DNA of 64,000 nt. Source: Shigella phage phi25-307. The DNA is taken from sequence record MG589383; one strand, given 5' to 3'. The notes under the pieces were generated by a model that did not search any database, was not told the DNA's origin, and saw only the letters and a program-made list of their open reading frames with translations. Below are positions 5,740-58,596 of the stretch, piece after piece (the stretch's first letter is position 1; each line of letters opens with the position of its first letter). The position numbers and the translations under genes were made by a program.

Positions 5740-5747
5740 GGATTATC

Positions 5748-17137: not shown

Positions 17138-17719
17138 TTATTCACCACAAAAGTTTCGGATTTGTTCCCAATTCAGAGAACGAAGATTATTACGAGAGTA
17201 CTGAATTACTTCAATACCGGCTTGTTTTAGAATGTCTGCCCAATTTTCAGGAGATCTGTCATATAATTCTGCGTATACAACCTTTTTAATACCTGACTGC
17301 GTAATAGCTTTAGTGCAATCAGGACATGGAGAAAGTGTCGTATACAACGTAGCACCTTCAATAGAATTACCTTTACGAGCTGCAAACAAAATGGCATTCA
17401 ATTCAGCATGGATTTCGTTATTAGCAGACCATGCACTATGAGCGGCCCGATGTTCTTTAGCCAAAACAAAATTATCCACCCGTCCAAATGCTGTAGTGCC
17501 TTCTTTATGTCCGGCAACGATGACCGGGCTTGGTTTATTCTTCAACCAACCGTTTTCGGATGCATGTTCACAACAGTTAACGCCACCTGCTGGTGAGCCA
17601 TTATATCCAGTAGAGATAATGCGTCCATCTTTTTCAATGACGGCACCAACTTTCCATGAACAACATTTTGATTCTTGAGAAATCAGATATGCAATCTGAA
17701 GGTATGTGCTAGCTTTCAT
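17138..17719 (-). CDS. cd: dCMP deaminase (193 aa)
   Basis: Cytidine/dCMP deaminase zinc motifs HAELNA and PCPDC; size equals T4 Cd. Confidence 0.9.
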   Translation of the reverse strand: MKASTYLQIAYLISQESKCCSWKVGAVIEKDGRIISTGYNGSPAGGVNCCEHASENGWLKNKPSPVIVAGHKEGTTAFGRVDNFVLAKEHRAAHSAWSANNEIHAELNAILFAARKGNSIEGATLYTTLSPCPDCTKAITQSGIKKVVYAELYDRSPENWADILKQAGIEVIQYSRNNLRSLNWEQIRNFCGE

Positions 17720-19808: not shown

Positions 19809-20894
<1,086 letters not shown>

Positions 20895-20895
<1 letters not shown>

Positions 20896-21194
20896 TATTT
20901 TATTCCTAAGAAAATTTCAAGAATACGAATGTTATGCTCGCGCCGGTCTTTATTAATTTCAGCAACGTTTTTATTAATTGACGTACTTCTAACGTTTGAA
21001 GAAATAAATTTAATCATATGACTTTTGAGTTGTTGCAAATCCAACCCTTTTTCTTTAGCAGCTTTACGAAGAGCTTTACCTGCTTCATCTAGTGCCTTTG
21101 CTGCATCTTTGTCATAATTGCCGAGTGACATTCCACGACAGATATCAATATACTCATCAGACCGTTTGATGTAATTCTCTAGTAATGTTTTCAT
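20895..21194 (-). CDS. hypothetical protein (99 aa)
   Basis: ORF with early promoter at 21218-21250. Confidence 0.45.
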
Positions 21195-21251
21195 TTAGAT
21201 TTCCTCAATTATCCATAGGAGCATTATACTCTGCTCCTGAGAGTTTGTAAA

Positions 21252-21476
21252 CTATTTTACTAAAGATTCAATATACTCGTGAAGAGCTTTAGTCGCTACT
21301 GCCCACTTATTCTGATATTCATTTTTCAGATTAGCACGAGACTGAACTAACAATCGGTCATTAGTCGGAGGCAAAGATTCTAATCGTTGAATCTGGCGCC
21401 CATAAATCATAGCCGCCATTTCAGATTCATAGATAAGCCCTTTAATGTATTCATGTTGTTCTTTAGTCATTGGCAT
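21252..21476 (-). CDS. hypothetical protein (74 aa)
   Basis: ORF upstream of spanin pair. Confidence 0.4.
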   Translation of the reverse strand: MPMTKEQHEYIKGLIYESEMAAMIYGRQIQRLESLPPTNDRLLVQSRANLKNEYQNKWAVATKALHEYIESLVK

Positions 21477-21757
21477 TTTTCCTCTTTTAAACCACTACGA
21501 TAATAACATATCATAGTCTTCTGGTCATGTACATATCTTTTTACATCGTTTAACCAGATACGAAATTCTTGAGAGTCTTCAAACGGCATTCCAACCCACG
21601 GATTACCATCAATAACCTTTACTTGCCATTTCTGGTTATATTCAACAATAGATTCAGGCCATGGCGGATGTAAAGTTTCTTTAGGGCTTAAGGGCACATC
21701 CTGGGCACATCCAGCCAAAATACTAATAGATAATACAACTGCGGTTAATTTAATCAT
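21467..21757 (-). CDS. o-spanin-like outer-membrane lipoprotein (96 aa)
   Basis: Signal peptide with lipobox (MIKLTAVVLSISILAGC); position and size as T4 PseT.2. Confidence 0.6.
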   Translation of the reverse strand: MIKLTAVVLSISILAGCAQDVPLSPKETLHPPWPESIVEYNQKWQVKVIDGNPWVGMPFEDSQEFRIWLNDVKRYVHDQKTMICYYRSGLKEEKCQ

Positions 21758-22110
21758 TCTGAGAGCTTCCTGAGGTCTTCTGCAAAGGAATCGAAGGACT
21801 TGTTGATTTGTTTTTCGACCAATCCTGGTTTACTTGCCACCACGTTCTTCTTCTTCGAATCCTTACGGAGCTTTTCATTTTCGGCCTTAAGTTGGTCAAC
21901 TAAAACACGGTTCTTATAAGTCATTTCTTCGATTGACTGATACTGAACCTTGAAGTCGTCTAATACTTTAGCATTGTTTTTAGCGGTCTCTTTGACAGAA
22001 GCTAATTCAGTATTCAACGAATCAACTTTGTTGTTTAAGACAACTATTGTTACCGTAGAAACTAGAGCAAAAGCTGCTACTATAGTATAAATCGGATTTA
22101 CTTTAAGCAT
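21754..22110 (-). CDS. i-spanin-like protein (118 aa; N-terminal TM plus coiled coil)
   Basis: N-terminal TM (IYTIVAAFALVSTVTIVVL) then charged coiled-coil region; 4-nt overlap with the lipoprotein gene; position as T4 PseT.3. Confidence 0.6.
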   Translation of the reverse strand: MLKVNPIYTIVAAFALVSTVTIVVLNNKVDSLNTELASVKETAKNNAKVLDDFKVQYQSIEEMTYKNRVLVDQLKAENEKLRKDSKKKNVVASKPGLVEKQINKSFDSFAEDLRKLSE

Positions 22111-22598
22111 GTTTTAATAATCTCAATGATTTCATCTCGGGATAATCCATTGATAAGAACGGTTTTCGGACCATCGCACTGGATTTTGTACGATTCAAAC
22201 AATACACACAACTCTTCTGCTGTATGATACGGACTTGAAATTCCGAGGCGGTTGAATTTGTCGGTAAGAGGGTCGCAAATAATGTAGAATTTTATACCTG
22301 CGATATGTACATTTGGTTGACTAATATTAATGAACACATTAGCGTCATATTTAGTCAAATTGTTTTGAAGAAATTCTACCATGGCATTAACTGCTTCTGG
22401 CATCGCTTCACGTTTCTCTTCGGTGTAACGTGTTGAATATTCCTTTTGCTTTAACTTCTTTTTAGCATTTTTGGCCAGTGTAACACGTAGGTCAGTAAGA
22501 TAACCAACTGGACGTCCTTTCTTAAAGACCCTGATTCCATCTGAAGAATCACCAAATGCTGCCACAACCATATCGTTAGTAATCAATTGCATATTCAT
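22098..22598 (-). CDS. alc: Alc, inhibitor of host transcription on C-containing DNA (166 aa; start at internal ATG 22598)
   Basis: Begins MNMQLITNDM as T4 Alc; SD GAGGAG 8 nt upstream of ATG 22598; early promoter 22629-22658. Confidence 0.8.
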   Translation of the reverse strand: MNMQLITNDMVVAAFGDSSDGIRVFKKGRPVGYLTDLRVTLAKNAKKKLKQKEYSTRYTEEKREAMPEAVNAMVEFLQNNLTKYDANVFINISQPNVHIAGIKFYIICDPLTDKFNRLGISSPYHTAEELCVLFESYKIQCDGPKTVLINGLSRDEIIEIIKTCLK

Positions 22599-22628
22599 AA
22601 TTTTCTCCTCGTGATGTTGATAAAAGCC

Positions 22629-22658
22629 ATAGTAACACCATCCTTGGTGTTTGTAAAC
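22629..22658 (-). promoter_or_regulatory. T4-type early promoter upstream of alc
   Basis: Minus-strand GTTTACAAACACCAAGGATGGTGTTACTAT. Confidence 0.5.
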
Positions 22659-22660
22659 CA

Positions 22661-23794
<1,134 letters not shown>

Positions 23795-23808
23795 TCAGTT
23801 AGTTTTTT

Positions 23809-23841
23809 AAATTGTACCACAATCCTTGTGGCGTGTAAACT
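23809..23841 (-). promoter_or_regulatory. T4-type early promoter upstream of rnlA (-35 TTTACA / -10 TACAAT)
   Basis: 17-nt spacer; overlaps denA stop codon. Confidence 0.45.
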
Positions 23842-24250
23842 ACTTTTTCTTATGTTGGATATTCCAAGGCGGGTTGAACTTTTTGATAAAAAGCGGTTCT
23901 TCAAGGTCCATTGTTGCGATGGTCATTGAACCAAGTTCGTTGGTGACTGAAAGGTCAAAACATTGGCGGGCCCAGAATTCAACCTTTTTGCCTTGCATTA
24001 AGGCATCCAAAATCATAAGTGATTTTCTTGAATCTGAAGTCTGGTCTTTTCGATTTATGGCTGTTCGATAATAGTTAATGCGTTTCTTTAAATTCTTGGT
24101 TTTACCAATATACACAAGTTCGTCATCTATAGCAATAGCGTATATGACATTTTTCTTATTAGGGACATCAACTGTTTTAATTGTTGCATCTTCTAATAGC
24201 TCCAATTCTGTATATTTAATAAAGGAATATTCGGCGGCAATATCTTTCAT
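23840..24250 (-). CDS. denA: endonuclease II, GIY-YIG family (136 aa)
   Basis: Collinear with T4 DenA (YSFIKYTELEL, NVIYAIAI.DELVYIGKTKNL.KRINYYRTAINRKD, FNPPWNIQHKKK). Confidence 0.9.
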   Translation of the reverse strand: MKDIAAEYSFIKYTELELLEDATIKTVDVPNKKNVIYAIAIDDELVYIGKTKNLKKRINYYRTAINRKDQTSDSRKSLMILDALMQGKKVEFWARQCFDLSVTNELGSMTIATMDLEEPLFIKKFNPPWNIQHKKK

Positions 24251-24276
24251 AATAAAGTGGGACCGAAGTCCCGTCC

Positions 24277-25464
24277 TTAGAAATATTTTTTGTATGAATT
24301 GATTACATTTTGGTCTACATCATTATCAATTTGTGCGACAAGATAAGAACTGATTTCAACTTCCTGAGGAGCTGCTTGAACTAAATCAGAGTTCAGATAT
24401 TCACGAATCCAAGGATATGGATGCTTGGTCGGAGCATCAGTGATTGGGCATGGTAAACCACACTGTTTCATACGAGACACAGTCAAGTAATCAACAAAAG
24501 CACACATACTCTGCGTATTGATACCTGGGCATGTACCGTTTTTAAAGAGGTGTGCAGCCCATTCCTTCTCTTGTCTATTTACTTCCATAAAAATGTCAAC
24601 TGCTTCTTGTTCACATTCTTTAGCAATTTGAACCCACTCATCACCATCAGTACCAGATTGAAGTTGACGGATAATGTACTGAGTACCCTTGAGGTGGAGT
24701 TGTTCGTCACGAGCAATGAACTTCATAATCTTTGCATTACCTTCCATAATTTCCATATTTTTATGGAAGTTGAAAGTACATGCAAATGATACGTAAAAAC
24801 GAATAGCTTCTAAGGCATTGATAACATGCAAACAGAGATAAAGAGACTTCATTAAATCACGCTTGGCGTTAAACATTATTTCTTCATACATCTCAATATC
24901 ATTCTGCTGGCATGAGCCTATTGAACGCTCATAATCTTCCTTAGCGTTTTCCCAATAACGAGTTTTAACCAGAACATCATCGTAATATTTACCTATTGAT
25001 TCAGCTCGTTTCATGATTGCTTCGTCTAATACAATTTCATCAAATACCTTAGATGGGTCCGTATAAAGATTTCGCATAATATGAGTATACGAACGAGAGT
25101 GAATAGTTTCACTGAATGTCCATGTTGCAACCCACGTATCTAATGAAGGGTCAGAAATCAGTGCCATAAGTACCGCAGATGGGGCCCTGCCTTGGATAGA
25201 ATCTAATAATGATTGATACTTAAGATTGTTTGTAAAGATGTCCTGTTGGAACTGAGGAAGCTTATTGAACTGCGCAGAGTCCAACATCAAGTTTACCTCT
25301 TCTGGGCGCCAAAAAAACGATAATTGCTTTTCGGTCAAATCTTCAAAAACTTTATGGCGTTGAATATCATAACGCGCAATACCAAGACCAGAACCAAAGA
25401 ACATCGGTTCATTCAAAACATCAACTTGTTGTGTGTTAAAAACTGTACTCATTATATTTCTCAC
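24277..25464 (-). CDS. nrdB: ribonucleotide reductase small (beta) subunit (395 aa), uninterrupted
   Basis: Size and synteny with T4 NrdB; continuous reading frame, no intron-sized gap. Confidence 0.88.
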   Translation of the reverse strand: MRNIMSTVFNTQQVDVLNEPMFFGSGLGIARYDIQRHKVFEDLTEKQLSFFWRPEEVNLMLDSAQFNKLPQFQQDIFTNNLKYQSLLDSIQGRAPSAVLMALISDPSLDTWVATWTFSETIHSRSYTHIMRNLYTDPSKVFDEIVLDEAIMKRAESIGKYYDDVLVKTRYWENAKEDYERSIGSCQQNDIEMYEEIMFNAKRDLMKSLYLCLHVINALEAIRFYVSFACTFNFHKNMEIMEGNAKIMKFIARDEQLHLKGTQYIIRQLQSGTDGDEWVQIAKECEQEAVDIFMEVNRQEKEWAAHLFKNGTCPGINTQSMCAFVDYLTVSRMKQCGLPCPITDAPTKHPYPWIREYLNSDLVQAAPQEVEISSYLVAQIDNDVDQNVINSYKKYF

Positions 25465-25504
25465 TTAGTTTAACTCATCCATGAGTAAATTATAATCAAA
25501 AGTC

Positions 25505-27760
25505 TTAAAGCTTACAAGCAGAACAATCTTCAGCTTTAGGTGTTTCTAATTCGTAGTCATCTGTACCTGACCCATCACGAGTGTTATGATAGTAGAGGTT
25601 TTTTCCGCCAAAGTACCAGAAGTAAAGTAGATCGTCAAGCATTACTGACATTGGTACTTTACCTTTCTCAAATACTGCAGGGTCATAGTAAGTATTAGCA
25701 GAAGCAGATTGGCACACCCATTTCAACATGATAGCAACTTGGGTCAAATAAGGTTTATTACCTTTCTTAGCAAGTTTCCACGCGTAGTCGTAAAGACTCA
25801 TGTTATGTTCTATATTAGGAACAACCTGACGGAAGTTGCCTTCTTTAGATTCTTTAATACTTACTGGACCGCGTGGGGGCTCAATCCCGTTTGTAGAGTT
25901 TGATACTTGACTGCTTGACTCACAAGGCATGAGTGCAGACAACGTTGAGTTACGAATTCCATGTTCTTTGAGTTCAGCTCGAAGTTCTTCCCAGTCACAG
26001 ACGTAGTTCGGGGCTGCGATTTGGTCAATCTTTTTATTGTACCAGTCGATAGGTAATTCGCCTCTAGACCATTTAGTGTCTGAATAATACTCGCAACATC
26101 CTTTTTCTTTGGCGAGTTTGATTGAAGCTTTGATAAGGCCATATTGCAATCTCTCAAACAATTCATGAGTCAAATCGTTAGCGTCTTCATATGAAGCAAA
26201 GTTGGAAGCTAACCATGCGGCATAGTTCGTAACACCAACACCGAGGTTTCGACGCTTTTTAGCTTTTAAAGCTTCTGGAACCGGATAATCTTGATAGTCT
26301 AACAGGTTATCAAGTGCACGTACTTGTACTTCAGCAAGTTCATTAATTTTATCTTGGTCTTGCCAATCAAATTTATCTAATACAAAAGCAGATAATGTGC
26401 ATAAACCAATTTCAGCATCAGGACCATTCACATCATTAGTTGGAATAGCGATTTCACAACATAAGTTACTCTGACGAATTGGAGCTTTTTCACGAATAAA
26501 TGGAGTGTAGTTATTCGTGTTATCAACAAACTGTGGATAAATTCGAGCAGTGCCAGAACGTTCAGTCATGAACAATTCAAAGAGTTCTAGTGCTTTTATT
26601 CTTTTCTTTCTGATTGTTGGGTCTTTTTCAGCTTTCTCATAAAGCTCACGGAATTTATCTTGATCTTCAAAGAACGAGTAGTATAGTTCGCCTGACATTT
26701 CGTGAGGGCTAAATAAAGTAATATAATCATTTTTACCAAGGCGTTCCATCATAAGGTCATTAATCTGAATTCCGTAGTCCATATGACGAATACGGTTTTC
26801 ATCCACGCCTTTGTTATTTTTCAGAACTAATAGGTTCTCTACTTCTAAGTGCCACATCGGATAATACGCTGTAGCAGCACCACCACGAATACCACCTTGA
26901 GAACAAGATTTTACTGCAGTTTGGAAATGTTTCCAGAATGGAATAACACCTGTATGTCGAACTTCACCCATACCGATCTTAGAACCTTCTGCACGAAGCA
27001 TACCAACGTTGATACCGATACCAGCTCGTTTAGAAATATATTCAATAATTGATGCTGAAGTTTTGTTAATAGATTTTAACGAATCACCGGCTTCAATAAC
27101 TACACAACTAGAGAACTGGCGAGTTGGAGTACGAGCACCTGCCATAATTGGAGTAGGCAATGAAACTTGATGAGTAGAAACGGCATCATAAAAACGAATA
27201 ATATGTTTCAAACGGTCGTGAGTTTCGTCTTGATGTAAGGCCATACCAATAGCCATGATAGCAAACTGTGGAGTTTCATAAATCTTCCCAGTTGTTTTAT
27301 CTTTAACTAGATATTTTTCTTTAAGCTGCATAGCACCAGCATAAGTCAGGTCAAAGTCTCGTTCATGTTTAATCTGTGAATCGAGATAAATGATTTCTTC
27401 TGCTGAATATTGAGACAACAACTCAGGGTCATATTTGCCTTCATTAACACAGTAAGAAATATGGTCGATAAAAGCAGGTGGTTCAAACTGTCCGTATACA
27501 TCTTTACGAAGTGCAAACATTAGCCCTTTGGCGGCGACATACTGATAATCAGGTTCTTCGACAGAAATCAAGTTAGCTGCAACTTTAATACAAATCTTCT
27601 GAATATCTTTGGTGCTCATCCCATCGACAAGATGGGTCTTAATTTCTTCGTACAATTCATATGGATCAATTTGTGTTCCTTCACATTGCCAAGTTAAGAC
27701 TTGAATAATTTTCTGTGCATCAAAATTTTGGGATACACCACTGCTCTTAGTTACTTGCAT
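25505..27760 (-). CDS. nrdA: ribonucleotide reductase large (alpha) subunit (751 aa)
   Basis: Size (T4 NrdA 754 aa) and synteny; class I RNR C-terminal cysteines. Confidence 0.9.
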   Translation of the reverse strand: MQVTKSSGVSQNFDAQKIIQVLTWQCEGTQIDPYELYEEIKTHLVDGMSTKDIQKICIKVAANLISVEEPDYQYVAAKGLMFALRKDVYGQFEPPAFIDHISYCVNEGKYDPELLSQYSAEEIIYLDSQIKHERDFDLTYAGAMQLKEKYLVKDKTTGKIYETPQFAIMAIGMALHQDETHDRLKHIIRFYDAVSTHQVSLPTPIMAGARTPTRQFSSCVVIEAGDSLKSINKTSASIIEYISKRAGIGINVGMLRAEGSKIGMGEVRHTGVIPFWKHFQTAVKSCSQGGIRGGAATAYYPMWHLEVENLLVLKNNKGVDENRIRHMDYGIQINDLMMERLGKNDYITLFSPHEMSGELYYSFFEDQDKFRELYEKAEKDPTIRKKRIKALELFELFMTERSGTARIYPQFVDNTNNYTPFIREKAPIRQSNLCCEIAIPTNDVNGPDAEIGLCTLSAFVLDKFDWQDQDKINELAEVQVRALDNLLDYQDYPVPEALKAKKRRNLGVGVTNYAAWLASNFASYEDANDLTHELFERLQYGLIKASIKLAKEKGCCEYYSDTKWSRGELPIDWYNKKIDQIAAPNYVCDWEELRAELKEHGIRNSTLSALMPCESSSQVSNSTNGIEPPRGPVSIKESKEGNFRQVVPNIEHNMSLYDYAWKLAKKGNKPYLTQVAIMLKWVCQSASANTYYDPAVFEKGKVPMSVMLDDLLYFWYFGGKNLYYHNTRDGSGTDDYELETPKAEDCSACKL

Positions 27761-27848
27761 ATATTCCTCAGTATAGGTTGATAGACATTACTCCAAACGG
27801 GATAGTATTTATCCCGTTAATTTATTATACAACTTTTAAACTGAAGCG

Positions 27849-28103
27849 TTAATTATCCTCAGCAATAATTTCTTCGTATTCTTTAGGTGTCAAGACTGTG
27901 ATATCGAAATAAACCAACGGTTCTTTTTCTATACCGTAACCACCACAAAATTCACGATATTCATAAATTCGTTCATGTGAATAGCAAATGAATCGTTCAC
28001 CTTTAATTGTGATTTCACTATTCGGTGAAGGGATATCCAGTTCGGTAGGATTTTTCATTTCAAAAATTGTGGTGCCATATGAATTAATAAAACGTAAAAT
28101 CAT
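27849..28103 (-). CDS. hypothetical protein (84 aa)
   Basis: ORF between td and nrdA. Confidence 0.45.
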   Translation of the reverse strand: MILRFINSYGTTIFEMKNPTELDIPSPNSEITIKGERFICYSHERIYEYREFCGGYGIEKEPLVYFDITVLTPKEYEEIIAEDN

Positions 28104-28104
28104 T

Positions 28105-28965
28105 TTATACCGCCATTTTAGCTTTGATAGCTGGATGTGATTCGTAATTTTTAAGAACGAAATCAGAATGTGTCATTGTTCCGGTAACCCAGTCCATTTG
28201 GATTTTTGTAGGCCAATTCTCAAAATTACTAGGCCAATTAATTTCAAGAGAACATAACTCTTTAGGTTCACGACGAAGAACTTCTTTGCATTGTTCTACA
28301 TGATTGCTGTAGATATGCGTGTTGCCGCCTGAGAACACTAAATCACCTGGGGTAAGGTTACACATCTTCGCTACAATATGCGTCAAGGCAGCGTACGAGG
28401 CAATGTTGAACGGCAGGCCTAAGAAAACATCTACACTGCGTTGATACCATTGTAAATCAAGATGACCATTACGCACATTGAACTGATAGAACATATGGCA
28501 AGGAGGAAGAGCCATTTGATTTATTTCAGCTGGATTCCAGGCAGAAACAATTTGACGACGATCAGTTGGTAATTTTTTAATACGGTCGATTGTTTCAACT
28601 AATTGGTCTACACCACCAAAATCACGCCATTGCTTACCATAAATAGGACCAAGTTCGCCACTATGATATCCAAGGTCTTTTGCCTGATTTTCATAGTTAT
28701 CGTCCCAAATAGTTTTACCTTGAATAAGACTACCATGAGTACGAATACGCAAATCATTAACATTGGTAGAACCAGACATGAACCATAATAGCTCGGCAAT
28801 ACAAGCTTTCCATGCTAATTTCTTAGTTGTTACCGCAGGGAATCCTTTAGTCAGATCCCAACGTAATTTAGTTCCGAACAGGGCAATAGTGCCGGTACCT
28901 GTACGGTCGTCTGTTTCGTAGCCATTTTCTAAGATATCTTTAATTAGGTATTGGTATTGTTTCAT
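28105..28965 (-). CDS. td: thymidylate synthase (286 aa), uninterrupted
   Basis: Thymidylate synthase active-site region (LPPCH.FYQF); size equals spliced T4 Td; no intron. Confidence 0.92.
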   Translation of the reverse strand: MKQYQYLIKDILENGYETDDRTGTGTIALFGTKLRWDLTKGFPAVTTKKLAWKACIAELLWFMSGSTNVNDLRIRTHGSLIQGKTIWDDNYENQAKDLGYHSGELGPIYGKQWRDFGGVDQLVETIDRIKKLPTDRRQIVSAWNPAEINQMALPPCHMFYQFNVRNGHLDLQWYQRSVDVFLGLPFNIASYAALTHIVAKMCNLTPGDLVFSGGNTHIYSNHVEQCKEVLRREPKELCSLEINWPSNFENWPTKIQMDWVTGTMTHSDFVLKNYESHPAIKAKMAV

Positions 28966-29549
28966 TTATAAACGCTCTCAGTAATTTCGGTGAGTTCATC
29001 GATTCTGTAGTAATGAGATTCTACCATAGAACGTTGAAGCATAATATCTTGGACGAAATCTTTATCAAGTTGAACATCGGAATTAACACGACATTTCTTA
29101 ATGATTTTAGTCATCACGATTTCATCGGCATAAGGCAGTGCTTGTTTTAATAAAGCAGGACCACCAATAACCGAGACATTAACATGTTCAGTAGAAAGTT
29201 TAAACGGTACGTCAGTTGCAGGGCTAAACAGGTTAATTTCACCACCTGTTACCAAGGTAATAAATTCAGATTGGGTGATATAGAACCGTGCAAGTTCGTT
29301 GGTTTTAGTCCTAGGCAGTTTTCTGGCCATATCAGTGACAACCACATGAGTGCGATCTGGTAGTAGACGAGGTAATGATGCAAAAGTCTTAGCACCCATA
29401 ACCATTACAGTGTTTTTAGTGCGAGCAACAAAGTTACTCATATCTTGTTTGATATGCTTCCATGGAAGTCCATCACCTAATCCAAAAGCATATTCCAGTT
29501 TATCATCAACCGTTTTAGACGGTGCGCATGCGAATACTAATTTAAGCAT
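28962..29549 (-). CDS. frd: dihydrofolate reductase (195 aa; start at internal ATG 29549)
   Basis: Aligns with T4 Frd from MLKLVF (LPW, VMGAKTF.SLP.LLP.R.H.VV, VIGGPALL); ORF-track N-extension overlapping upstream gene rejected. Confidence 0.88.
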   Translation of the reverse strand: MLKLVFACAPSKTVDDKLEYAFGLGDGLPWKHIKQDMSNFVARTKNTVMVMGAKTFASLPRLLPDRTHVVVTDMARKLPRTKTNELARFYITQSEFITLVTGGEINLFSPATDVPFKLSTEHVNVSVIGGPALLKQALPYADEIVMTKIIKKCRVNSDVQLDKDFVQDIMLQRSMVESHYYRIDELTEITESVYK

Positions 29550-29790
29550 TTTTAAGTCCTTTAATAACTTTTTGGATTTGTGATTTAGAAGAAACCAAAT
29601 CAGTCTGGATTTGACAGCCGTCGGTCGGGTCAAATGTTGTAACACAAACACGAGGTTTTGTTGTGTATCGACCAGACAAATCAAATGCGTCACCAATGAA
29701 TTCGGCTAAATCCGGATGGTCCAAATTAACTGAAGTATAAACTTCATATCCGACATCAGCGCCTTGAGAGTATTCAACAACAACATTCAT
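29542..29790 (-). CDS. hypothetical protein (82 aa)
   Basis: ORF upstream of frd, overlapping its start by 8 nt. Confidence 0.5.
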   Translation of the reverse strand: MNVVVEYSQGADVGYEVYTSVNLDHPDLAEFIGDAFDLSGRYTTKPRVCVTTFDPTDGCQIQTDLVSSKSQIQKVIKGLKNA

Positions 29791-29792
29791 AA

Positions 29793-30056
29793 TTATTTCC
29801 TCAGATTTTTCTTAACAACTTTCCAATCGGCTTTAAACGATTCAACATCAGAGTGGTGAATCCAGAATCCTGCACTTTCACCATCTTCGTAGAGTGGACA
29901 TCCATCACATTCTTCGTTCCAACCCATTTCACGTAAAGCTTCTTCGGCTTGTTCAAGGAGTTCAGCGTCTTTACCAACTATGGTAAAGTACCATTTACCT
30001 CTAACTTCTGAATCTTTGATGCTCTGGCGTTGCAATCTCATTTTATTCTCCTTCAC
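29793..30056 (-). CDS. hypothetical protein (87 aa)
   Basis: ORF with early promoter upstream (about 30065-30100). Confidence 0.5.
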   Translation of the reverse strand: MKENKMRLQRQSIKDSEVRGKWYFTIVGKDAELLEQAEEALREMGWNEECDGCPLYEDGESAGFWIHHSDVESFKADWKVVKKNLRK

Positions 30057-30102
30057 TTTTATTTGATAGGACTACTATAACATAGCCCTATCTTGTTATA
30101 AA

Positions 30103-30495
30103 CTACTTTTTAAAAGTTTTTTGCAAAAGTTTGATGATTTCGTCGACGTTGGTTTCATCTACGATACAATGTATTTTTGTTACACCTAAAGCTATACCTT
30201 TGTTGGTAGATTGAGGCTTTACTAAATCTACCTCAGTAAAGTATTTGAACTCGTCAGGATAAATCTCAAAATAAGTTTCAATTTCACCAGCGGCAGAACA
30301 TACAGTACCGTCTTCCATAGTTACACTTACTACGTTTGGCGTATCGTCATCATAATCAGGTTCCATTCCGTTTACAACAAAACTAGGCCCGTGGAGTTCA
30401 ATCAATTTTAACATCTTAGCGTTATTGTGTGGCGCTTCTTGAACAAAGTCGTCTTTAAACAAAGGGTTAATGATATAAGATTTTCCGATTTCCAT
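30103..30495 (-). CDS. hypothetical protein (130 aa)
   Basis: ORF with early promoter upstream (about 30510-30558). Confidence 0.5.
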   Translation of the reverse strand: MEIGKSYIINPLFKDDFVQEAPHNNAKMLKLIELHGPSFVVNGMEPDYDDDTPNVVSVTMEDGTVCSAAGEIETYFEIYPDEFKYFTEVDLVKPQSTNKGIALGVTKIHCIVDETNVDEIIKLLQKTFKK

Positions 30496-30579
30496 TTTGA
30501 TTTCCTCATGTTGTTGATAGAACTATAATATCACATCTAGGGAAGAAGTAAACAACTTTTTTGGCAATTTACAGATACT

Positions 30580-30602
30580 CAAAAGGGAGACCGAAGTCTC
30601 CC
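30580..30602 (-). terminator. gene 32 terminator (GGGAGAC-UUCG-GUCUCCC, U-tract)
   Basis: Hairpin starts 6 nt after gene 32 stop; TTTTGAG follows. Confidence 0.65.
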
Positions 30603-30608
30603 GATTTA

Positions 30609-31508
30609 TTATAGACCAGCTAACAGGTCATCGAGGTCGCCATCGTCAGAAGACGAGGAACTCATGAAGTCATCTTCAGTTTTTGCAGAACTAAAGGCTT
30701 CCATGTCTTTATCAAAATCGTCGAGGTCAGAAGCAACTTTATCTGCAACAGAAGCTGCGGCAGCTGCTGCACCACCAAGAGCGGCAGTACCAAGAACTTG
30801 AGTAAATTTAGTATTCAATTCTTCAAACGATTTGAACTTATCTTTAGAAGTCATTTCAGAAAGGTCAACCATTTGTTCGAACAATTCTTTCTGGAAAGAT
30901 TCATCATCAATGTTTGGAATCGCAGATTGATTCAGGAATTTAGATTCGTCATAGTTACTGAAACCAGAAACCTGTTTAACTTTCAGCACAAAGTTAGCAC
31001 CTTCCCATGGGCAAGTTACATCAACAGGAGTTTCACCCATTTCAGTATCGACTGCAATCATTGCATTGATTTTGTCCCAAATCTTTTTACCAAAACGGTA
31101 TTTGAATACTTTACCTTCATTATCTGGAGCTTGTGGGTCTTTAACAACCAGGATATTAGCCCAATAAGAAGTTTTACGTTTCAGTTGAGAATATTCTGTT
31201 TTGTTTGTATTGTACAGATCATTTTTACTAATGTACTGACATACTGGACAAGAGTCATAATCGCCGTGTGTAGATGAACAGGTTTCAATATACCATTTGC
31301 CGTTTTTCTTGAACCCGTGGTTAACAAGAATTGCAAACGGAAGTGCGTCATCTGTTTTTGCCGGCAGGAAACGAATTACCGCTTGACCATTACCGGATGC
31401 ATCGAGTTTCAGCTTCCATTCACCTTTATCTTCTGAAGAGAAACCTTTGTTACCATTCAGTTTAGCCATCTGAGCTGCGAGGTCTGCGGTACTTTTACGT
31501 TTAAACAT
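30609..31508 (-). CDS. 32: single-stranded DNA-binding protein gp32 (299 aa)
   Basis: Collinear with T4 gp32 ([35 protein letters not shown], zinc site [16 protein letters not shown], acidic C-terminus). Confidence 0.95.
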
Positions 31509-31575
31509 TTTATTTGCCTTTATTTAGATTAATTAAATTTTACAGTTGGTTGCTACGACACTTATACCTCGTAGC
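31509..31575 (-). promoter_or_regulatory. gene 32 translational operator: AU-rich unstructured leader plus upstream hairpin/pseudoknot element
   Basis: Minus-strand leader AAAATTTAATTAATCTAAATAAAGGCAAATAAA-ATG; hairpin GCTACGA(10 nt)TCGTAGC at 31552-31575; matches known T4 gene 32 autoregulatory architecture. Confidence 0.5.
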
Positions 31576-31622
31576 TGGTATGATTTATTTATAAAGTAAT
31601 TTTAACACACAAGAAATAAAGC

Positions 31623-32276
31623 TTAATACTTACATGATTTGATTGTTTCTATGAACAATTTCTTAGCAGCATTTCCATCGATTTGAAGTATTTTTCGATA
31701 TGCCTTTAATTTGGTAGAATAATTTTGCCAGACTAAATTGTCAGTAAGTTCGTCGTGCTTATCTATAATATTCAAAAATGAGTCCAACAATAAGAAAGTC
31801 TCAAATGAGATTATATTGCTTTGTAGCAATTTGAATATGTAGCTCGACTGAACGTTGTTATTATAATCAAATATCTCTTGAAGCGCACTAACTTCAACTT
31901 TCTTACTGAAATAGTAGATGTTACGTACGTCTTCAGCAAACGTCTCCTTGGCTTGTTTGAGACGTCCAATATATTCCCTATAGAAAACTAATGCATCAGC
32001 GTCTGATATCTCACCAATCCATGCGTCTTGGTTAGCAACTAAGTTGCTTATGAATATCAAGGTGAGTTCCTTCAATTTATATTTCTCTGCTAGTTTTTCA
32101 AAGAAATATTTATCTCGGCGTTTTTGATACGCATTATCCGAAACACGCATGCACCAGTTATATTTGATTACGTCATACCGACCACCAAAGTGGTTTTTGC
32201 ACATCAAGTATAGTTTATATACTGATTTACCGTTAATATAACGTTCTCCGTCAGGAGGCATGCGTATTTTAATCAT
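31623..32276 (-). CDS. 59: helicase loader gp59 (217 aa)
   Basis: Size identical to T4 gp59; position between 32 and 33. Confidence 0.85.
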   Translation of the reverse strand: MIKIRMPPDGERYINGKSVYKLYLMCKNHFGGRYDVIKYNWCMRVSDNAYQKRRDKYFFEKLAEKYKLKELTLIFISNLVANQDAWIGEISDADALVFYREYIGRLKQAKETFAEDVRNIYYFSKKVEVSALQEIFDYNNNVQSSYIFKLLQSNIISFETFLLLDSFLNIIDKHDELTDNLVWQNYSTKLKAYRKILQIDGNAAKKLFIETIKSCKY

Positions 32277-32952
32277 AGTTCCATCCAGGCCATTTTGAAG
32301 ATTTAAGTCTATACGTAACTAGAGATGCAGAAATATTAAAAACATCCGAAACTTCTGTGCATGACGAGTATTTTATACCATCAATAATTATAGGTTTTTG
32401 TTTTTTAATAGTTCTTTCTTTAGAATGCGGCTTTGAATTTGCTATTCTAAGAGCTTCTTTGGTTGAATCAGGCATCGGCTTATTCGTTTTTCGCCCTTTT
32501 CGGACTTTACTCAAAGCTAATTTATGAGCTTCAGATAGTTTCTTACCCTTATTAGGGGATGGTATTTTTCTTTCTAATCTGGTTTTAGATACTTTAGCCT
32601 TAGTCTCTTCAGATCTAGGTTTACCTAATTTAGAAAGTGAAATAGCCCTTTTAGCTTCATCACTTTGTTTTTTACCAGGGCCACCTTTACCACCGGGAAC
32701 TAAGTTATAAGTATCAGTTCGCAAAACAAAATCTTCATTAACCAATTCTGCTTCTTTTTTATAGGCGTCCTTGTCATTATCATATTCATAAAGAATTTCG
32801 GTATAAAAATTTTTTAGTCCATATTTAGCTTTGGCCGCTAATATAGCGCGGCCTGATCCAATATACCAATCTTTCTCTTTATGTTTTTTGTGTACGCCTA
32901 TATAAATTTTACCATTTATTTTATTGGTAGTTTTATACACAACGTATTTCAT
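32269..32952 (-). CDS. free-standing GIY-YIG homing endonuclease, Seg-like (227 aa)
   Basis: N-terminal GIY-YIG module (KYVVYKTTNKINGKIYIGVH...R...E) followed by Lys/Ser-rich DNA-binding-type repeats; wedged between 59 and 33 with overlapping stops/starts. Confidence 0.75.
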   Translation of the reverse strand: MKYVVYKTTNKINGKIYIGVHKKHKEKDWYIGSGRAILAAKAKYGLKNFYTEILYEYDNDKDAYKKEAELVNEDFVLRTDTYNLVPGGKGGPGKKQSDEAKRAISLSKLGKPRSEETKAKVSKTRLERKIPSPNKGKKLSEAHKLALSKVRKGRKTNKPMPDSTKEALRIANSKPHSKERTIKKQKPIIIDGIKYSSCTEVSDVFNISASLVTYRLKSSKWPGWNYD

Positions 32953-33287
32953 AATAAGAAATCTAACGTATTAGTTTTTTCACCACGAGCAACTGATGGG
33001 CGAAGCATGTTTTCGTCAATTGCTTCGCTTGTAATTTTTTCAACAATTCCTGTAGGAATAAATTTAGCAAATTGTGTTTCTGGAATAGAATTTTCTTCCA
33101 AGAAAGCAGTTGTTGCTTCTAAATAAGACATACCAAATCGTTCAACCATGGATTCGATAATGAATCCGTTTTCTTGTCGGTCAAGTAATTTAGCGATATC
33201 ATCTTTATCGTGTTTTACTGCTAATTCTTGTTCAGATAAACCGGCCTCATCAACCGGTTTAATATCACTTAGTGAAAACTGTGTCAT
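32949..33287 (-). CDS. 33: late transcription accessory protein gp33 (112 aa)
   Basis: Collinear with T4 gp33 (MVERFGMSYLEATTAFLEENSIPETQFAKFIP, KTNTLDFLL). Confidence 0.93.
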   Translation of the reverse strand: MTQFSLSDIKPVDEAGLSEQELAVKHDKDDIAKLLDRQENGFIIESMVERFGMSYLEATTAFLEENSIPETQFAKFIPTGIVEKITSEAIDENMLRPSVARGEKTNTLDFLL

Positions 33288-33534
33288 AAAGCTCGACTAC
33301 CTCTTCGTTTTCAGCTTCAAATTGATCACGAGCGTCTTTATGATAAAGAGCTAACAAACGATTAAACATTTTTCCATCGACGCCAAGCTCTTCTTTAGCA
33401 CGAGTACGAATGTCTTTAATCAGTTCATTATAACCAGAAATTTTAAGTTTGTTATCGGAAGCTTCTTTGACTAGTTTAGCCAGTTCTTCACCATGCACAT
33501 CTTGATTAAATTCAACTGCTTCTTTCTTAGCCAT
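33265..33534 (-). CDS. dsbA: dsDNA-binding protein DsbA (89 aa; start at internal ATG 33534)
   Basis: MAKKE..VEF...HGE.LAK..KEASD.KLKISGYNELIKDIR as T4 DsbA; SD GAGGT upstream of ATG 33534. Confidence 0.88.
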   Translation of the reverse strand: MAKKEAVEFNQDVHGEELAKLVKEASDNKLKISGYNELIKDIRTRAKEELGVDGKMFNRLLALYHKDARDQFEAENEEVVELYDTVFTK

Positions 33535-33541
33535 GTTTACC

Positions 33542-34459
33542 TCAGAATTCATTAATTACACTTGTTAATTTAGAAAGACCAGATTTTACAAAGTATGAAT
33601 AAATCTTGCCTTTAGGTTGTGGTTTATATGAGTTATAATACTCTATAATGGTTGAAGCAATATTATCAGGGATATAATCAAAATCAATGAGAACCAAATT
33701 TTCTTGATACCGTTTATATTCTTCTGCACTTAATAATACTTCGGCTTGAGAACGGTCATTGGCAATTGCTTCAATAATCGTTGTTTTCATGCTCGGAGTT
33801 CGTTCACCATCAACTCGAGTAAACCAGAAGTCACCACGAACTCGAACAGATGCAACGCCATCTTTACGGTCACCTTTAAGAATTTTAGTCATGCAATCAA
33901 TTTCAGCAGAACCGTTCTTAATTTTAACCCATTTTTTCTGTGGTGGCGACCACTGTTTAACGTTAGGATATTTGTGTAATTGTGTAAAGTCACCATCTGA
34001 TGCAACAATACATACCTTATGACCAGCTAATGACAAATATTTAGTTAATACACCGATATGGTCATCCGCTTCATACTTGTCAATATCCATTACAACGTAT
34101 GGCATGTATTTCTTAATCTCATCAACAACTTGATGGAGTGCAGTAAAATATCCTTCCCAATCCCACTTTGAAGCTTCACGATCGGTTTTACGATTTTTCT
34201 TGTAATAGTAAGCAAAGTCACGACGCCAATAACCTGAAGTAGCATTATCCATACACAATACAAATTTTGTATAGCCTTGCTTACGGAACATCACCACGTT
34301 TTTACGAATTGAATTCAAGATTACATGGCGAACCATCGGAACAGTAATTTTATCGCCGTCTTCAAAGTTGTTTAATGCGGCTGCCAATGCAATGTTACTA
34401 AAGTCGGCAAGTGCAATACCTTCTTTGTAATCTTCATCCAACATCATTTCTAAATCCAT
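33542..34459 (-). CDS. rnh: RNase H / 5-prime flap exonuclease (305 aa)
   Basis: Size identical to T4 RNase H; position between dsbA and gene 34. Confidence 0.85.
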   Translation of the reverse strand: MDLEMMLDEDYKEGIALADFSNIALAAALNNFEDGDKITVPMVRHVILNSIRKNVVMFRKQGYTKFVLCMDNATSGYWRRDFAYYYKKNRKTDREASKWDWEGYFTALHQVVDEIKKYMPYVVMDIDKYEADDHIGVLTKYLSLAGHKVCIVASDGDFTQLHKYPNVKQWSPPQKKWVKIKNGSAEIDCMTKILKGDRKDGVASVRVRGDFWFTRVDGERTPSMKTTIIEAIANDRSQAEVLLSAEEYKRYQENLVLIDFDYIPDNIASTIIEYYNSYKPQPKGKIYSYFVKSGLSKLTSVINEF

Positions 34460-55978: not shown

Positions 55979-56791
55979 TTAGGACATCCAACACATTTTA
56001 TAACCTTTGCAGGTTCTGTTAGGATTATTTAATGCTTTCAATATATTAGAAGACCCTATATCTAAATACTCCCTTAATTCATAAAGATAGTTAAAATCAA
56101 TAGTTTCACCTGTTTTTACACTTGTGATTCTTATAGGCCTTCTTTCATATTTAGATTTATACAACTCTCTAGTCTTAGCTTTAGTTTCTTCTGACCTAGG
56201 AGTGTATGGTTTAAATCCTTTTGTTTTAAATGTTTCCATTCTTGATTTAGTTATTTTATCCTGGTGTTCTTTTGTTTTTACAGGTGCTTTTCGCCCATTC
56301 TCCCAAGATAACTTGTTGGCCTGTATTATTTTATCTATTGCTTCTTGCGTATGAGTTTTACCATAAAATGGATTTAATTCGCCTATACGTTGTGAAGCAA
56401 TATGTGACATTAATTCTCTTGTTGCTTTAGTATGTTTTTTACCTTTAAATGGGTTGCCATTTTTAGCAATCCATTCTTTCATAAATCTAGAGTGCTCTTT
56501 AGAGAATTCTTGTTTAAGCCAATCATAATCTCTAGAATTTCTAGCTCCCATGTAAAAAGCTCTAATAGCCATAAGCATAGAACGGTTCTTATGAATTTTA
56601 TAAAGCAATAAATGGGCGATAAAATGCTCTCTAGGGGTCATTTTAACTAGATTTGATTTAGCATTACTCCCACCCATAGATTTAGGCAAAATATGGTGAG
56701 TTTCAGTATAATTAGGAATAGTGCTGCGGTTTTTAGCCGCAGCGATAAGTTTATCATAAATTTTACGATAATTCATTATCCTAGCATCCAA
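55979..56791 (-). CDS. free-standing HNH homing endonuclease, Mob-like (270 aa)
   Basis: HNH core (TETHHILPKSMGGSNAKSNLVKMTPREHFIAH) plus repeated NUMOD-like DNA-binding modules (NPFKGKKHT, NPFYGKTHT); overlaps 3-prime end of gene 39 by 16 nt. Confidence 0.8.
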   Translation of the reverse strand: MDARIMNYRKIYDKLIAAAKNRSTIPNYTETHHILPKSMGGSNAKSNLVKMTPREHFIAHLLLYKIHKNRSMLMAIRAFYMGARNSRDYDWLKQEFSKEHSRFMKEWIAKNGNPFKGKKHTKATRELMSHIASQRIGELNPFYGKTHTQEAIDKIIQANKLSWENGRKAPVKTKEHQDKITKSRMETFKTKGFKPYTPRSEETKAKTRELYKSKYERRPIRITSVKTGETIDFNYLYELREYLDIGSSNILKALNNPNRTCKGYKMCWMS

Positions 56792-58596
56792 TCTTTACGG
56801 AGTTCAGGGTCGTTACCCATGAGCATTTCAAATAGTTCTTTCCAATTTTCAGGAAGTTTAACTACGTCGTACACAGGGTTTTGAATCATTTCTTTATATT
56901 CATCCCGCTGAAGTGAGCCCAATCCCTTGATGTATCGAATACTATGCTTAGGCAGTGTATCTTTGGCTTCTTCATACTCAGCTACAGTATAAAACCATTT
57001 TTGAGTTTTGCCAATTTGTGCAATAATTACAGGCGTTTTAACAAAGCGAATACGTCCTTGTTCAAACAATTCAGGCCAATTACTAAAGAAAGCAAGCAAA
57101 GCCGGATAAATACTTCCAAGACCGTCATGATCGGCATCGGTCATAATTGCAATATTACGATAGTTCGTATTCTCTGCCTTTTCACCAAGAATAAGACCTG
57201 TGATAGCACAGATATCAAAGAGCTCTTTGTTCTTCATCATATCAGCATATGACATACCCCAGCTATTCATCACCTTACCACGTAATGGGAATCCACCGTG
57301 TAGTTCACGGTCACGAACATCAATGAGATAACCAATTGCCGAATCACCTTCTGTTAAAAACAATGTCGTATCTGCATCTTTACCACATTGGTTAGCTTTA
57401 ATATGCTTATGAACCTTAGCTTTAGTTGCCTTTTTAGCTGCTTTAGTTTCTGCAGCCTTTTCTGCTGCCAATTTACGAGCTAATGCTGCTTCAACAATAG
57501 GCATAATCAAAGCTTCATTTTTAAGAAGTGCCTGAGCAATTTTCTTAGCATCTAATTGGATATGATTACGAATATCACCATACGTTGACGTTAAACGTTC
57601 TTTAGTCTGAGAATCAAAACGCATGTTGCTCATGTCTCTAATAAACATCAACATTGTGAGGCATTCTTTAACACGAGCTTTAGTGACTTCAATACCCTTA
57701 TATTTCTTTTTAATACCGGGCAAAAGATGTTCGCAGATATCATCCATTACACATTCAACATGATGACCACCATTTTTAGTATGGATGTTATTCACATAAG
57801 TTAAATGACGGAAGCCATCTGGTGATGTTGTGAATGCTATAGAGACTTTATCATTTTCTTGAATGATGTTATCTTCGCCAAATTGTTTAGCAAATCGTTT
57901 AAAATTACCATCAACCTTTTTACCATTAAATGTGAACTTGATATCAGGATAAACGACTGCCAATGTTTGAAGACGGTCTAAAGTAATATCTAAATAAATT
58001 TGAGATAAATTATGCTCTTCAAATGAAGAGAAATCAGGAGTGAAGATTACTTTAGTGCCTTTACCTTTAGATTTCTTAGAAGACCATGATTTGTTTTCCA
58101 TTCCGTTTGAACAGTTAACAGTGATTTCATTTTCGCCATCTGACGTGATGCCTGTAAACAACGTAGAGAAGATATTAGTTAAACTACTCCCGACGCCGTT
58201 CATACCACCAGTCTTGCGTTCAGAGTCATCACCAAAGTTACCACCGGCCTTTGGAATAGTCCAGGCCGCTACAGGCCCAGGAATTTGTTCACCTGTTTGG
58301 TCGGTAACTAAACCTTGAGGAATACCACGTCCGTTATCTTCCACTGAGACTTGATTATTTTTAATTTGCACATCAATTTTATTTGCAAACTTAAATGATG
58401 TACGAATAGCTTCATCAACCGAGTTGTCAATAATCTCATCGATTAATTTAACAAGACCAGGAACATATTCAACTTGTTGATATTTACCAAACAAAAAACG
58501 CTCATGGGCTTCTTTAGCCGAAGAACCAATATACATGCCACTGCGTTTCTTAATATGTTCTACATCTGACAATACCTTAATTTCATTTTTAATCAT
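56776..58596 (-). CDS. 39: DNA topoisomerase II large subunit, fused 39+60 type (606 aa)
   Basis: GHKL ATPase N-terminus collinear with T4 gp39 and Toprim C-terminus collinear with T4 gp60 (AIMTDADHDGLGSIYP.LL.FFSNWPELFEQGRIRFVKTPVIIAQ) in one uninterrupted frame. Confidence 0.93.
   Translation of the reverse strand: MIKNEIKVLSDVEHIKKRSGMYIGSSAKEAHERFLFGKYQQVEYVPGLVKLIDEIIDNSVDEAIRTSFKFANKIDVQIKNNQVSVEDNGRGIPQGLVTDQTGEQIPGPVAAWTIPKAGGNFGDDSERKTGGMNGVGSSLTNIFSTLFTGITSDGENEITVNCSNGMENKSWSSKKSKGKGTKVIFTPDFSSFEEHNLSQIYLDITLDRLQTLAVVYPDIKFTFNGKKVDGNFKRFAKQFGEDNIIQENDKVSIAFTTSPDGFRHLTYVNNIHTKNGGHHVECVMDDICEHLLPGIKKKYKGIEVTKARVKECLTMLMFIRDMSNMRFDSQTKERLTSTYGDIRNHIQLDAKKIAQALLKNEALIMPIVEAALARKLAAEKAAETKAAKKATKAKVHKHIKANQCGKDADTTLFLTEGDSAIGYLIDVRDRELHGGFPLRGKVMNSWGMSYADMMKNKELFDICAITGLILGEKAENTNYRNIAIMTDADHDGLGSIYPALLAFFSNWPELFEQGRIRFVKTPVIIAQIGKTQKWFYTVAEYEEAKDTLPKHSIRYIKGLGSLQRDEYKEMIQNPVYDVVKLPENWKELFEMLMGNDPELRKDWMLG

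Follow-up and report, generated by a model that had tools for sequence, protein, structure and literature searches.

The analysed window, 64,000 nucleotides of Shigella phage phi25-307 (MG589383), carries a nucleotide-metabolism cluster in the order denA-nrdB-nrdA-nrdA.2-td-frd. The phage belongs to Mosigvirus and shares 95.5% nucleotide identity with RB69; its identity to PNJ-9 is 98%. Coordinates of the cluster, of the intron insertion sites within it, and of the mobile-element-related genes elsewhere in the window are collected in Table 1. The td start codon (ATG) overlaps the frd stop codon; the 244-aa frd ORF that begins at a TTG is an over-extension. The open reading frame listed for nrdB spans 24277–25464 (395 aa) and starts at a GTG at 25464. 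Translation almost certainly begins at the ATG at 25452 instead, because the NrdB proteins of T4, RB69, and AV110 all begin MSTVFNT. NrdA matched three large-subunit Pfam domains of ribonucleotide reductase (RNR), namely PF02867 (1.1e-132), PF00317, and the ATP-cone. DenA is a GIY-YIG nuclease and not a homing endonuclease. A promoter and terminator consensus scan of positions 23700–30100 showed no enrichment over shuffled sequences (25 vs. 21.8 and 4 vs. 3.6).

Table 1. Genes, intron sites, and other features of the window, with positions counted from its first letter.
Feature	Position	Strand	Remarks
denA, endonuclease II	23840..24250	(-)	79% identical to T4 DenA
nrdB, class Ia ribonucleotide reductase small subunit	24277..25452	(-)	391 aa from ATG, uninterrupted
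Empty nrdB intron insertion site	24768..24796	(-)	from DNA alignment breakpoints
nrdA-nrdB spacer	25453..25504	(-)	52 nt, empty
nrdA, class Ia RNR large subunit	25505..27760	(-)	intact, 751 aa
Intact nrdA stretch	26392..26424	(-)	residues about 446–457, directly after the NLCCE motif
nrdA.2 (DUF5496)	27849..28103	(-)	84 aa, between td and nrdA, RB69-like placement
td, thymidylate synthase	28105..28965	(-)	286 aa, uninterrupted
Empty td intron insertion site, I-TevI-type homing site	28405..28443	(-)	positions −27 to +12
frd, dihydrofolate reductase	28962..29549	(-)	195 aa from MLKLVF
Seg-like / I-TevI-like GIY-YIG endonuclease gene	32269..32952	(-)	free-standing, between genes 59 and 33
Mob-like HNH endonuclease gene	55979..56791	(-)	free-standing, directly 3' of gene 39
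Gene 39, fused topoisomerase large subunit (60plus39)	56776..58596	(-)	single frame, 606 aa

Both td and nrdB appear to encode complete proteins. Td matched the Pfam family PF00303 (Thymidylat_synt) over profile positions 1–266 of 266 (6.4e-98; 327.6 bits, cut-off 24.3) and was colinear with the T4 thymidylate synthase structure 1TIS (residues 1–286 vs. 1–286, E 1.5e-164). Its translation contains a PPCH motif and the segment RSVDVFLGLPFN, which by analogy with ThyA would hold the catalytic Cys and form an active-site segment, respectively. These matches assign Td to the thymidylate synthase family ThyA/Td, as judged from its predicted translation. NrdB matched PF00268 (Ribonuc_red_sm; 1.1e-37, 130.4 bits against a cut-off of 33.6) and is likewise a predicted member of the class Ia RNR small-subunit family. 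Residues D84, E115, H118, Y122, E215, E250, and H253 were invariant in a four-sequence alignment and presumably correspond to the iron ligands and the radical tyrosine of E. coli NrdB.

The T4 td gene was spliced in silico by removal of its 1017-nt intron (exons of 549 and 312 nt). The window Td has the same length as the resulting protein (286 aa each), shares 236 identical residues with it, and aligned gap-free up to residue 240. DNA alignment breakpoints against T4 placed the td junction between window positions 28417 and 28416, at codons G183 and L184 of DVFLG/LPFN, and the reading frame crosses this point unbroken with no indel close by. From −27 to +12, the site reads CAACGCAGTGTAGATGTTTTCTTAGGC up to the junction and CTGCCGTTCAAC after it. 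Eight differences from T4 were found in this interval, all of them synonymous, including AGT for TCA at −21 to −19, A at −4, and C for T at −1. I-TevI cleavage requires a CNNNG motif, and CAACG is retained at −27 to −23. Cleavage by the enzyme falls 23 and 25 nt 5' of the td insertion site (PMC2988022). With a contiguous exon junction and the cleavage position kept at the right distance, td reads as an intron-less recipient allele. In total, 249 phage records cross the td site without interruption.

The same approach was applied to nrdB (T4 exons of 664 and 503 nt, 598-nt intron removed). The window protein is about 86% identical to spliced T4 NrdB (391 vs. 388 aa), and all indels fall in one variable patch that precedes the insertion point by approximately 30 codons. 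The T4/RB3 intron would lie between position 24780 (T, which opens the Cys codon of SFAC/TFNF) and position 24779; again, the frame passes unbroken and no indel lies nearby. I-TevIII cleavage occurs 14 and 16 bp 5' of this insertion site (PMC1865063), which maps to about 24793–24795 in the window. Synonymous differences from T4 were found at −2, −8, −14, +5, and +8. The variable patch itself (25 aa, residues about 172–195) exists in versions that could not be aligned with one another, one in the window and RB69, another in AV110, and a third in T4. It limited the alignments of 400-nt nrdB queries to ~70%, under the 80% coverage criterion used to count intron-less alleles. This patch was also considered as a target of MobE and ruled out, as the positions do not coincide; MobE nicks nrdB at nt 122–126 (PMC2790892). 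Compared with the window and T4, the deposited RB69 nrdB is read in a different frame over about 40 codons.

Intron sequence was also searched for directly. Six T4 and Mosigvirus intron sequences compared with the 64 kb by blastn (word size 7) gave no significant match, the best (E about 0.015) being 17-nt chance words, and the segments inserted in other phages likewise showed no similarity to the window. The group I covariance model RF00028 gave no match at the gathering score over the whole window. The gathering-threshold scan, however, also missed T4 and four relatives, three of which have an interrupted td or nrdB; this negative was consequently dropped as evidence, known introns having been missed equally, and a permissive mode with positive controls was used instead. 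The td and nrdB introns of JM17 (35.3 and 33.9 bits) and the nrdB intron of T4 (35.7 bits) were recovered, but that of T4 td escaped detection, and the sensitivity of this mode is therefore imperfect. RF00028 had no match at E ≤ 1 in window positions 20000–34000. No intron-encoded I-TevI or I-TevIII gene was found inside td or nrdB, and the only I-TevI-like ORF is the free-standing one near gene 59. By reading frame, covariance model, and sequence similarity, td and nrdB are without a group I intron of the T-even type. The sequence-only reading had proposed that both genes are continuous, of the size of the spliced T4 products, and free of the T4 introns with I-TevI and I-TevIII. The ORFs, the full-length Td family match, and the spliced-exon alignments support the former, and the lack of intron similarity and of RF00028 signal supports the latter. 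Alignment to the T4 exons around the insertion sites, which it had suggested as a check, was gap-free across both points in Td and NrdB, with no extra residues at either junction to suggest an in-frame insertion derived from an intron. The intron sites covered were those of td and nrdB; the third T4 site, nrdD, lies outside the window.

The same reading had described gene 39 as fused and the phage as having acquired its own Seg-like and Mob-like endonucleases, and both descriptions held. Gene 39 is collinear with the RB69 gene '60plus39'. The product of the Seg-like gene has NUMOD3 as well as an I-TevI DNA-binding domain and shares 27% identity with I-TevI; over 76 aa, that of the Mob-like gene is 53% identical to T4 MobE. 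Both genes lie in insertions missing from RB69, which also lacks the DAHP synthase gene and small ORFs inserted in the window. The use of the fused gene 39 as a marker of few self-splicing elements was not supported, as the T4 39/60 split is ascribed, in a preprint and in the RB69 record note, to HEG insertion and translational bypass rather than to RNA self-splicing (bioRxiv 10.1101/2022.08.31.505936).

Comparison across phages placed the empty sites in context. RB69 shares the uninterrupted arrangement, as do 35 of the 40 phage records that matched best. A td intron was present in about 20 Mosigvirus-type records, AV110 and JM17 among them, which amounts to roughly one genome in seven, and the td of phage TuIa (AY262157) matched the same td junction query at 99.3%. 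The RB3-type nrdB intron occurred in about nine Mosigvirus-type genomes, such as FL31 and JM17, and nrdA was split by a MobE-like HEG in some, such as JM17 and PTE-Eco05. Intron breakpoints in the DNA alignments fell at identical positions in T4, AV110, JM17, and FL31. T4 itself is the exception among its relatives, in which td and nrdB are normally intron-free. The proposal that the window represents a lineage poorer in self-splicing elements than T4 was not borne out, as its genus includes members with a td intron, an nrdB intron, or a split nrdA. Since members with and without introns occur in the same genus, presence or absence is a strain-level polymorphism within Mosigvirus and not a lineage trait.

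The introns may once have been present in ancestors and been precisely lost, by recombination with an intron-less relative or by way of spliced RNA, which would make the empty sites secondary. Introns at the same sites in the same genus make both gain and loss plausible. A group I 5' splice site requires a U·G pair at −1, and precise excision would therefore leave a T at this position of td. The intron-less EP02SG does have T there, as a former splice site would. The window, in contrast, has C (GGC), whereas T was present in all three intron-bearing alleles compared, and both of its sites show RB69-type synonymous variants without the T4-type co-conversion tracts that flank the JM17 and FL31 introns. 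Loss is unlikely, although it may have come about by recombination with an intron-less Mosigvirus. The allele of EP02SG also means that C at −1 is not an absolute marker of never-invaded alleles, and it was not used as such.

The synonymous changes could instead make the sites poor substrates for I-TevI and I-TevIII, and thus naturally resistant rather than merely un-invaded. The eight differences at the td homing site are in line with this, as are the five around the nrdB site, one of which (C at −14) falls at the I-TevIII cut (PMC1865063). AV110, however, carries the td intron beside the same variants at −21 to −19 and −4. I-TevI tolerates many substitutions, and its cleavage motif is intact in the window. 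Such resistance seems improbable, and it is very doubtful that td and nrdB are both homing-resistant alleles owing to these variants; if they were, this would partially explain why most Mosigviruses stay intron-free amid intron-bearing relatives. The 3-aa excess of NrdB and its unalignable patch could also be read as a degenerate or HEG-less intron remnant hidden in frame. The patch lies well upstream of the insertion point, the net length change is just 9 nt, the patch has neither a group I signal nor similarity to introns, and in all relatives it forms part of the translated frame. By its sequence, a hidden nrdB remnant is effectively refuted, and its likelihood is negligible.

We therefore consider it nearly certain that the window carries intron-less alleles of td and nrdB in a standard RB69-like Mosigvirus nucleotide-metabolism cluster, with the homing sites unoccupied. 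Thymidylate synthase and class Ia RNR would be translated straight from colinear mRNA, without splicing, and both proteins are predicted to be active. The positions occupied by introns in T4 and in a minority of Mosigviruses are vacant I-TevI and I-TevIII homing sites here. Two further places are vacant as well, the nrdA-nrdB spacer where mobE would sit and the point at which a MobE-like gene splits nrdA in some relatives. Co-infection with an intron-carrying relative could lead to cutting and invasion of the empty sites. The window has the empty allele at every examined site. Intron-less td and nrdB are common in T4-related phages and carry little weight alone; they are already known from RB69, the type phage of the genus, and the observation, though correct, is unremarkable. 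Its use lies in correcting the lineage reading, as intron absence here is one allele of an active presence/absence polymorphism in Mosigvirus. The 4.7-kb cluster, empty in the window, contains up to three mobile insertions in JM17, and pairs of window-type and JM17-type genomes would serve conveniently as natural donors and recipients in studies of homing.

Among known systems, RB69 is a close counterpart. Its nrdB-nrdA-nrdA.2-td-frd cluster (AY303349, 139700–144970) has the same gene order and spacing as the window; its td and nrdB are also uninterrupted, mobE is absent, and 60plus39 is fused. RB69 has been tabulated without HEGs or introns (PMC2993671, Table 5). T4 (NC_000866), in contrast, has a group I intron with I-TevI in td and a group I intron with a truncated I-TevIII in nrdB, neither of which the window has. 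The T4 exons are orthologous to the window genes (82.5% protein identity for Td, about 86% for NrdB), and the insertion points fall in the same strictly conserved codons. The T4 spacers hold mobE, nrdB.1, and nrdA.1, all missing from the window; the first two lie in the nrdA-nrdB spacer. In EP02SG, this spacer has an 809-bp insertion. A mobE-like HEG was considered for it and rejected, as its 273-aa ORF has no MobE similarity; the ORF shows methyltransferase-like motifs (FCGG...DPPY). The intron-bearing Mosigvirus isolates AV110, JM17, FL31, and vB_Eco_F27 have flanking genes 95–98% identical to those of the window. Their td intron, absent here, is about 90% identical to that of T4 and encodes an I-TevI homologue (89% aa identity). 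An RB3-type nrdB intron (about 1093–1098 nt, with a full-length I-TevIII-like gene), also absent here, is found in some of them. A MobE-like HNH gene divides nrdA in two at the stretch that is intact in the window; this is seen in JM17 and about 35 further phage records. The 'genes-in-pieces' nrdA of Aeromonas phage Aeh1 (PMC3045599) is a precedent for the JM17 split only, the window nrdA being a single gene.

The window is a segment of a T4-type phage genome, and its td and nrdB genes were found to be uninterrupted at the sites where T4 carries group I introns (nrdD, the third T4 intron site, lies outside the window). T4 exons were joined in silico (td, 549-nt exon 1, 1017-nt intron and 312-nt exon 2; nrdB, 664-nt exon, 598-nt intron and 503-nt exon), and the translated products were aligned with the window proteins. 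Td is 286 aa in both phages, with 236 identical residues and no gap up to residue 240. NrdB is 391 aa in the window versus 388 aa in spliced T4, and every indel falls within a variable patch at residues ~172-195, located ~30 codons upstream of the intron insertion point. Both alignments run through the insertion points and no in-frame intron-derived insertion was found around the T4 intron sites, as the sequence-only reading had proposed. The td and nrdAB mRNAs require no splicing. The DNA alignment breakpoints of T4 and the intron-bearing relatives coincide at two window positions. Specifically, the td insertion point is the 28417/28416 boundary (coding strand TTCTTAGGC before and CTGCCG after the junction, codons G183 and L184 in DVFLG/LPFN), and the nrdB insertion point is the 24780/24779 boundary (TTTGCAT before and GTACTTTC after, within the Cys codon of SFAC/TFNF).

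Searches for intron sequence were also carried out. The introns of T4 and of the relatives AV110, JM17 and FL31 gave only chance words against all 64 kb (blastn, 7-nt word, best E ~0.015). Rfam at the gathering threshold returned no match in the window, which is uninformative because the setting was equally blank for T4 and four relatives, three of which have td or nrdB interrupted. In permissive E-value mode, the group I intron model RF00028 recovered the two introns of JM17 (35.3 and 33.9 bits) as well as that of T4 nrdB (35.7 bits), and detected nothing in window 20000-34000. The T4 td intron escaped this mode, and the case is therefore decided by the continuity of the genes and not by the RNA scan.

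In a nucleotide database search, 24277-28965 showed 98.0% identity with Escherichia phage PNJ-9 and 95.5% with RB69, and was matched over 100% of its length by dozens of Mosigvirus records. All cluster genes are on the minus strand, and residues 1-286 of Td match residues 1-286 of the solved T4 enzyme 1TIS. The ORF tool began nrdB at a GTG (25464, 395 aa); the true start is likely the ATG at 25452, because NrdB of T4, RB69 and AV110 all open with MSTVFNT.

Features of the window discussed in the text (insertions are relative to RB69)
Feature	Position	Strand	Support or content
204-aa ORF	14038-14652	-	no Pfam match
Class I DAHP synthase gene (insertion)	17719-18711	-	330 aa; Pfam, 1.8e-74
denA	23840-24250	-	Pfam-supported
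nrdB	24277-25452	-	Pfam Ribonuc_red_sm, 1.1e-37; likely start, 391 aa
nrdA	25505-27760	-	Pfam barrel, all-alpha and ATP-cone domains
nrdA.2 (DUF5496)	27849-28103	-	Pfam-supported
td	28105-28965	-	Pfam Thymidylat_synt, 6.4e-98, full length
frd	28962-29549	-	Pfam-supported
82-aa ORF	29542-29790	-	no Pfam match
GIY-YIG gene (insertion)	32277-32949		NUMOD3 and I-TevI DNA-binding domain
HNH/NUMOD3 gene (insertion)	55990-56785		
Same HNH/NUMOD3 gene, full frame (Mob-like)	55979-56791	-	
Fused gene 39	56776-58596	-	one 606-aa frame

Several smaller features of the cluster were noted. The NrdB patch (window ~24866-24940) is hypervariable in a protein otherwise >90% conserved, and exists in three mutually unalignable versions (window/RB69, AV110 and T4); it was rejected as the MobE nick site, since MobE nicks at nt 122-126 of nrdB. 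The deposited RB69 NrdB (RB69 stretch 20001-21173) differs from the window, AV110 and T4 over ~40 residues before the frame is restored, and this deviant stretch matches an out-of-frame window ORF (24579-24716). Comparison of the frames points to a pair of compensating frameshifts in the deposited RB69 sequence, which are probably sequencing errors. A GGGAC-UUCG-GUCCC tetraloop hairpin lies directly 3' of nrdB (24259-24272, minus strand), and the nrdA.2-nrdA spacer contains a 10-bp palindromic hairpin (27796-27818) with a promoter-like TTAACG-17-TATAAT site ahead of it. Taken whole, the cluster region showed no enrichment over shuffles in a promoter and terminator consensus scan. The 82-aa ORF sits in a 240-bp insertion separating frd from frd.1; it is present in the relative EP02SG and absent from RB69, AV110, JM17 and FL31.

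Close relatives carry the introns that the window lacks. Five of the 40 best-matching records were broken into several pieces. AV110 td contains a 1017-bp insertion with a 245-aa homing endonuclease gene, and JM17 td a 1018-bp insertion at the same site; these share ~90% identity with the intron of T4 td, and the endonuclease they encode shares 89% with I-TevI. In nrdB, FL31 (1093 bp) and JM17 (1098 bp) carry insertions that match the T4 intron at 96-99% identity in shared parts and hold a full-length I-TevIII-type gene (269 aa), as RB3 does. Junction-spanning searches found the td intron between Mosigvirus-type flanks in ~20 phage records and the nrdB intron in ~9; the TuIa td record AY262157 (1517 nt) matched the td query at 99.3%. 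The window td site was matched at >=90% identity by ~131 records, and 249 records span it uninterrupted. On these counts, roughly one in seven Mosigvirus-type genomes carries the td intron, an approximate figure in which RefSeq/GenBank duplicates are counted.

The exon DNA beside the nrdB intron in FL31 and JM17 is T4-identical rather than Mosigvirus-like for ~45 nt per side, and the JM17 td flanks are T4-like at -4 and +3. Such flanks are co-conversion tracts, as expected for homing from a T4-type donor, and the nrdB tract marks import from a T4/RB3-type donor. The AV110-type td intron has the guide GCCUAGG facing exon CUUAGGU (AV110 stretch 6640-6670), versus GCCUGAG facing CUUGGGU at the T4 5' splice site, and its P1 helix remains intact with the Mosigvirus form of the exon (A-U at -4). 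The pairing hints at residence of this intron variant in Mosigvirus-type td for some time.

The td and nrdB junctions of the window are probably unoccupied homing sites. For td, the I-TevI cuts lie 23 and 25 nt 5' of the point of insertion (PMC2988022). CAACG is conserved in the window at -27..-23, and eight synonymous changes separate the window from T4 between -27 and +12, including C for T at -1. Strong incompatibility of these variants is argued against because the AV110 intron sits next to window-like variants at -21..-19 and -4. For nrdB, the I-TevIII cuts are 14 and 16 bp 5' of the point of insertion (PMC1865063), and differences between the window and T4 fall at -2, -8, -14, +5 and +8. 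Alternatively, the td intron could once have been present and then precisely excised. A group I 5' splice site needs U at -1, so the C in the window argues against past excision, although this base is no strict indicator, given that the intron-less EP02SG has T there.

The sequence-only reading took intron absence as a lineage property, which was not borne out, as the same genus holds the intron-bearing records. With these in a minority, absence is the commoner state of a polymorphism that is still live in this genus. Intron-free td and nrdB are already known and ordinary. RB69 is listed without homing endonuclease genes and introns (Petrov et al. 2010, Table 5; PMC2993671), and among ~40 T4-related genomes intron-encoded homing endonuclease genes occurred in T4, T6, RB3 and LZ2 only (PMC2993671), making T4 the exception. 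The patchy intron distribution across T-even phages has been on record since the late 1980s, according to references cited by PMC2988022 and PMC2993671.

Gene 39 had been offered as a further sign of fewer self-splicing elements. The fusion was confirmed, collinear with RB69 60plus39. Its link to self-splicing failed, as the T4 39/60 split is described as a homing endonuclease gene insertion with translational bypass (RB69 record note; bioRxiv 10.1101/2022.08.31.505936). The claim that the phage has its own Seg-like and Mob-like endonucleases was correct: the GIY-YIG insertion is 27% identical to I-TevI, and the first 76 residues of the HNH insertion are 53% identical to T4 MobE. Overall, the initial observation stood and its interpretation was partly supported. 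Further insertions relative to RB69 include small ORFs and the DAHP synthase gene, a shikimate-pathway auxiliary gene. The latter lies between cd and cd.2 and is present at >=95% identity in ~138 phage records, with more distant forms in Klebsiella and Proteus phages. The 204-aa ORF is in a ~850-bp segment replacing RB69 gene 30.6.

Other elements interrupt the clusters of relatives. EP02SG has an 809-bp insertion (EP02SG stretch 2694-3502) in the nrdA-nrdB spacer (window 25449-25467); its 273-aa ORF was rejected as a mobE-type endonuclease, the FCGG and DPPY motifs pointing to a DNA methyltransferase-like protein. JM17 nrdA is split around a 236-aa HNH gene (JM17 stretch 3831-6990), MobE-like with 45% identity to T4 MobE, and no group I signal was found at the split. 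NrdA-a (474 aa) comprises residues 1-451 and a 23-aa tail, NrdA-b (329 aa) a 27-aa head and residues 450-751, and the break directly follows the NLCCE active-site motif. The split is common to ~35 phage records, mostly Tequatrovirus plus JM17 and PTE-Eco05; window nrdA is intact at this site (26392-26424). The JM17 arrangement resembles the genes-in-pieces ribonucleotide reductase of Aeh1. The Mob-like gene of the window overlaps the final 16 nt of fused gene 39, being inserted at the extreme 3' end of RB69 60plus39, whereas T4 mobA lies between 39 and 60.
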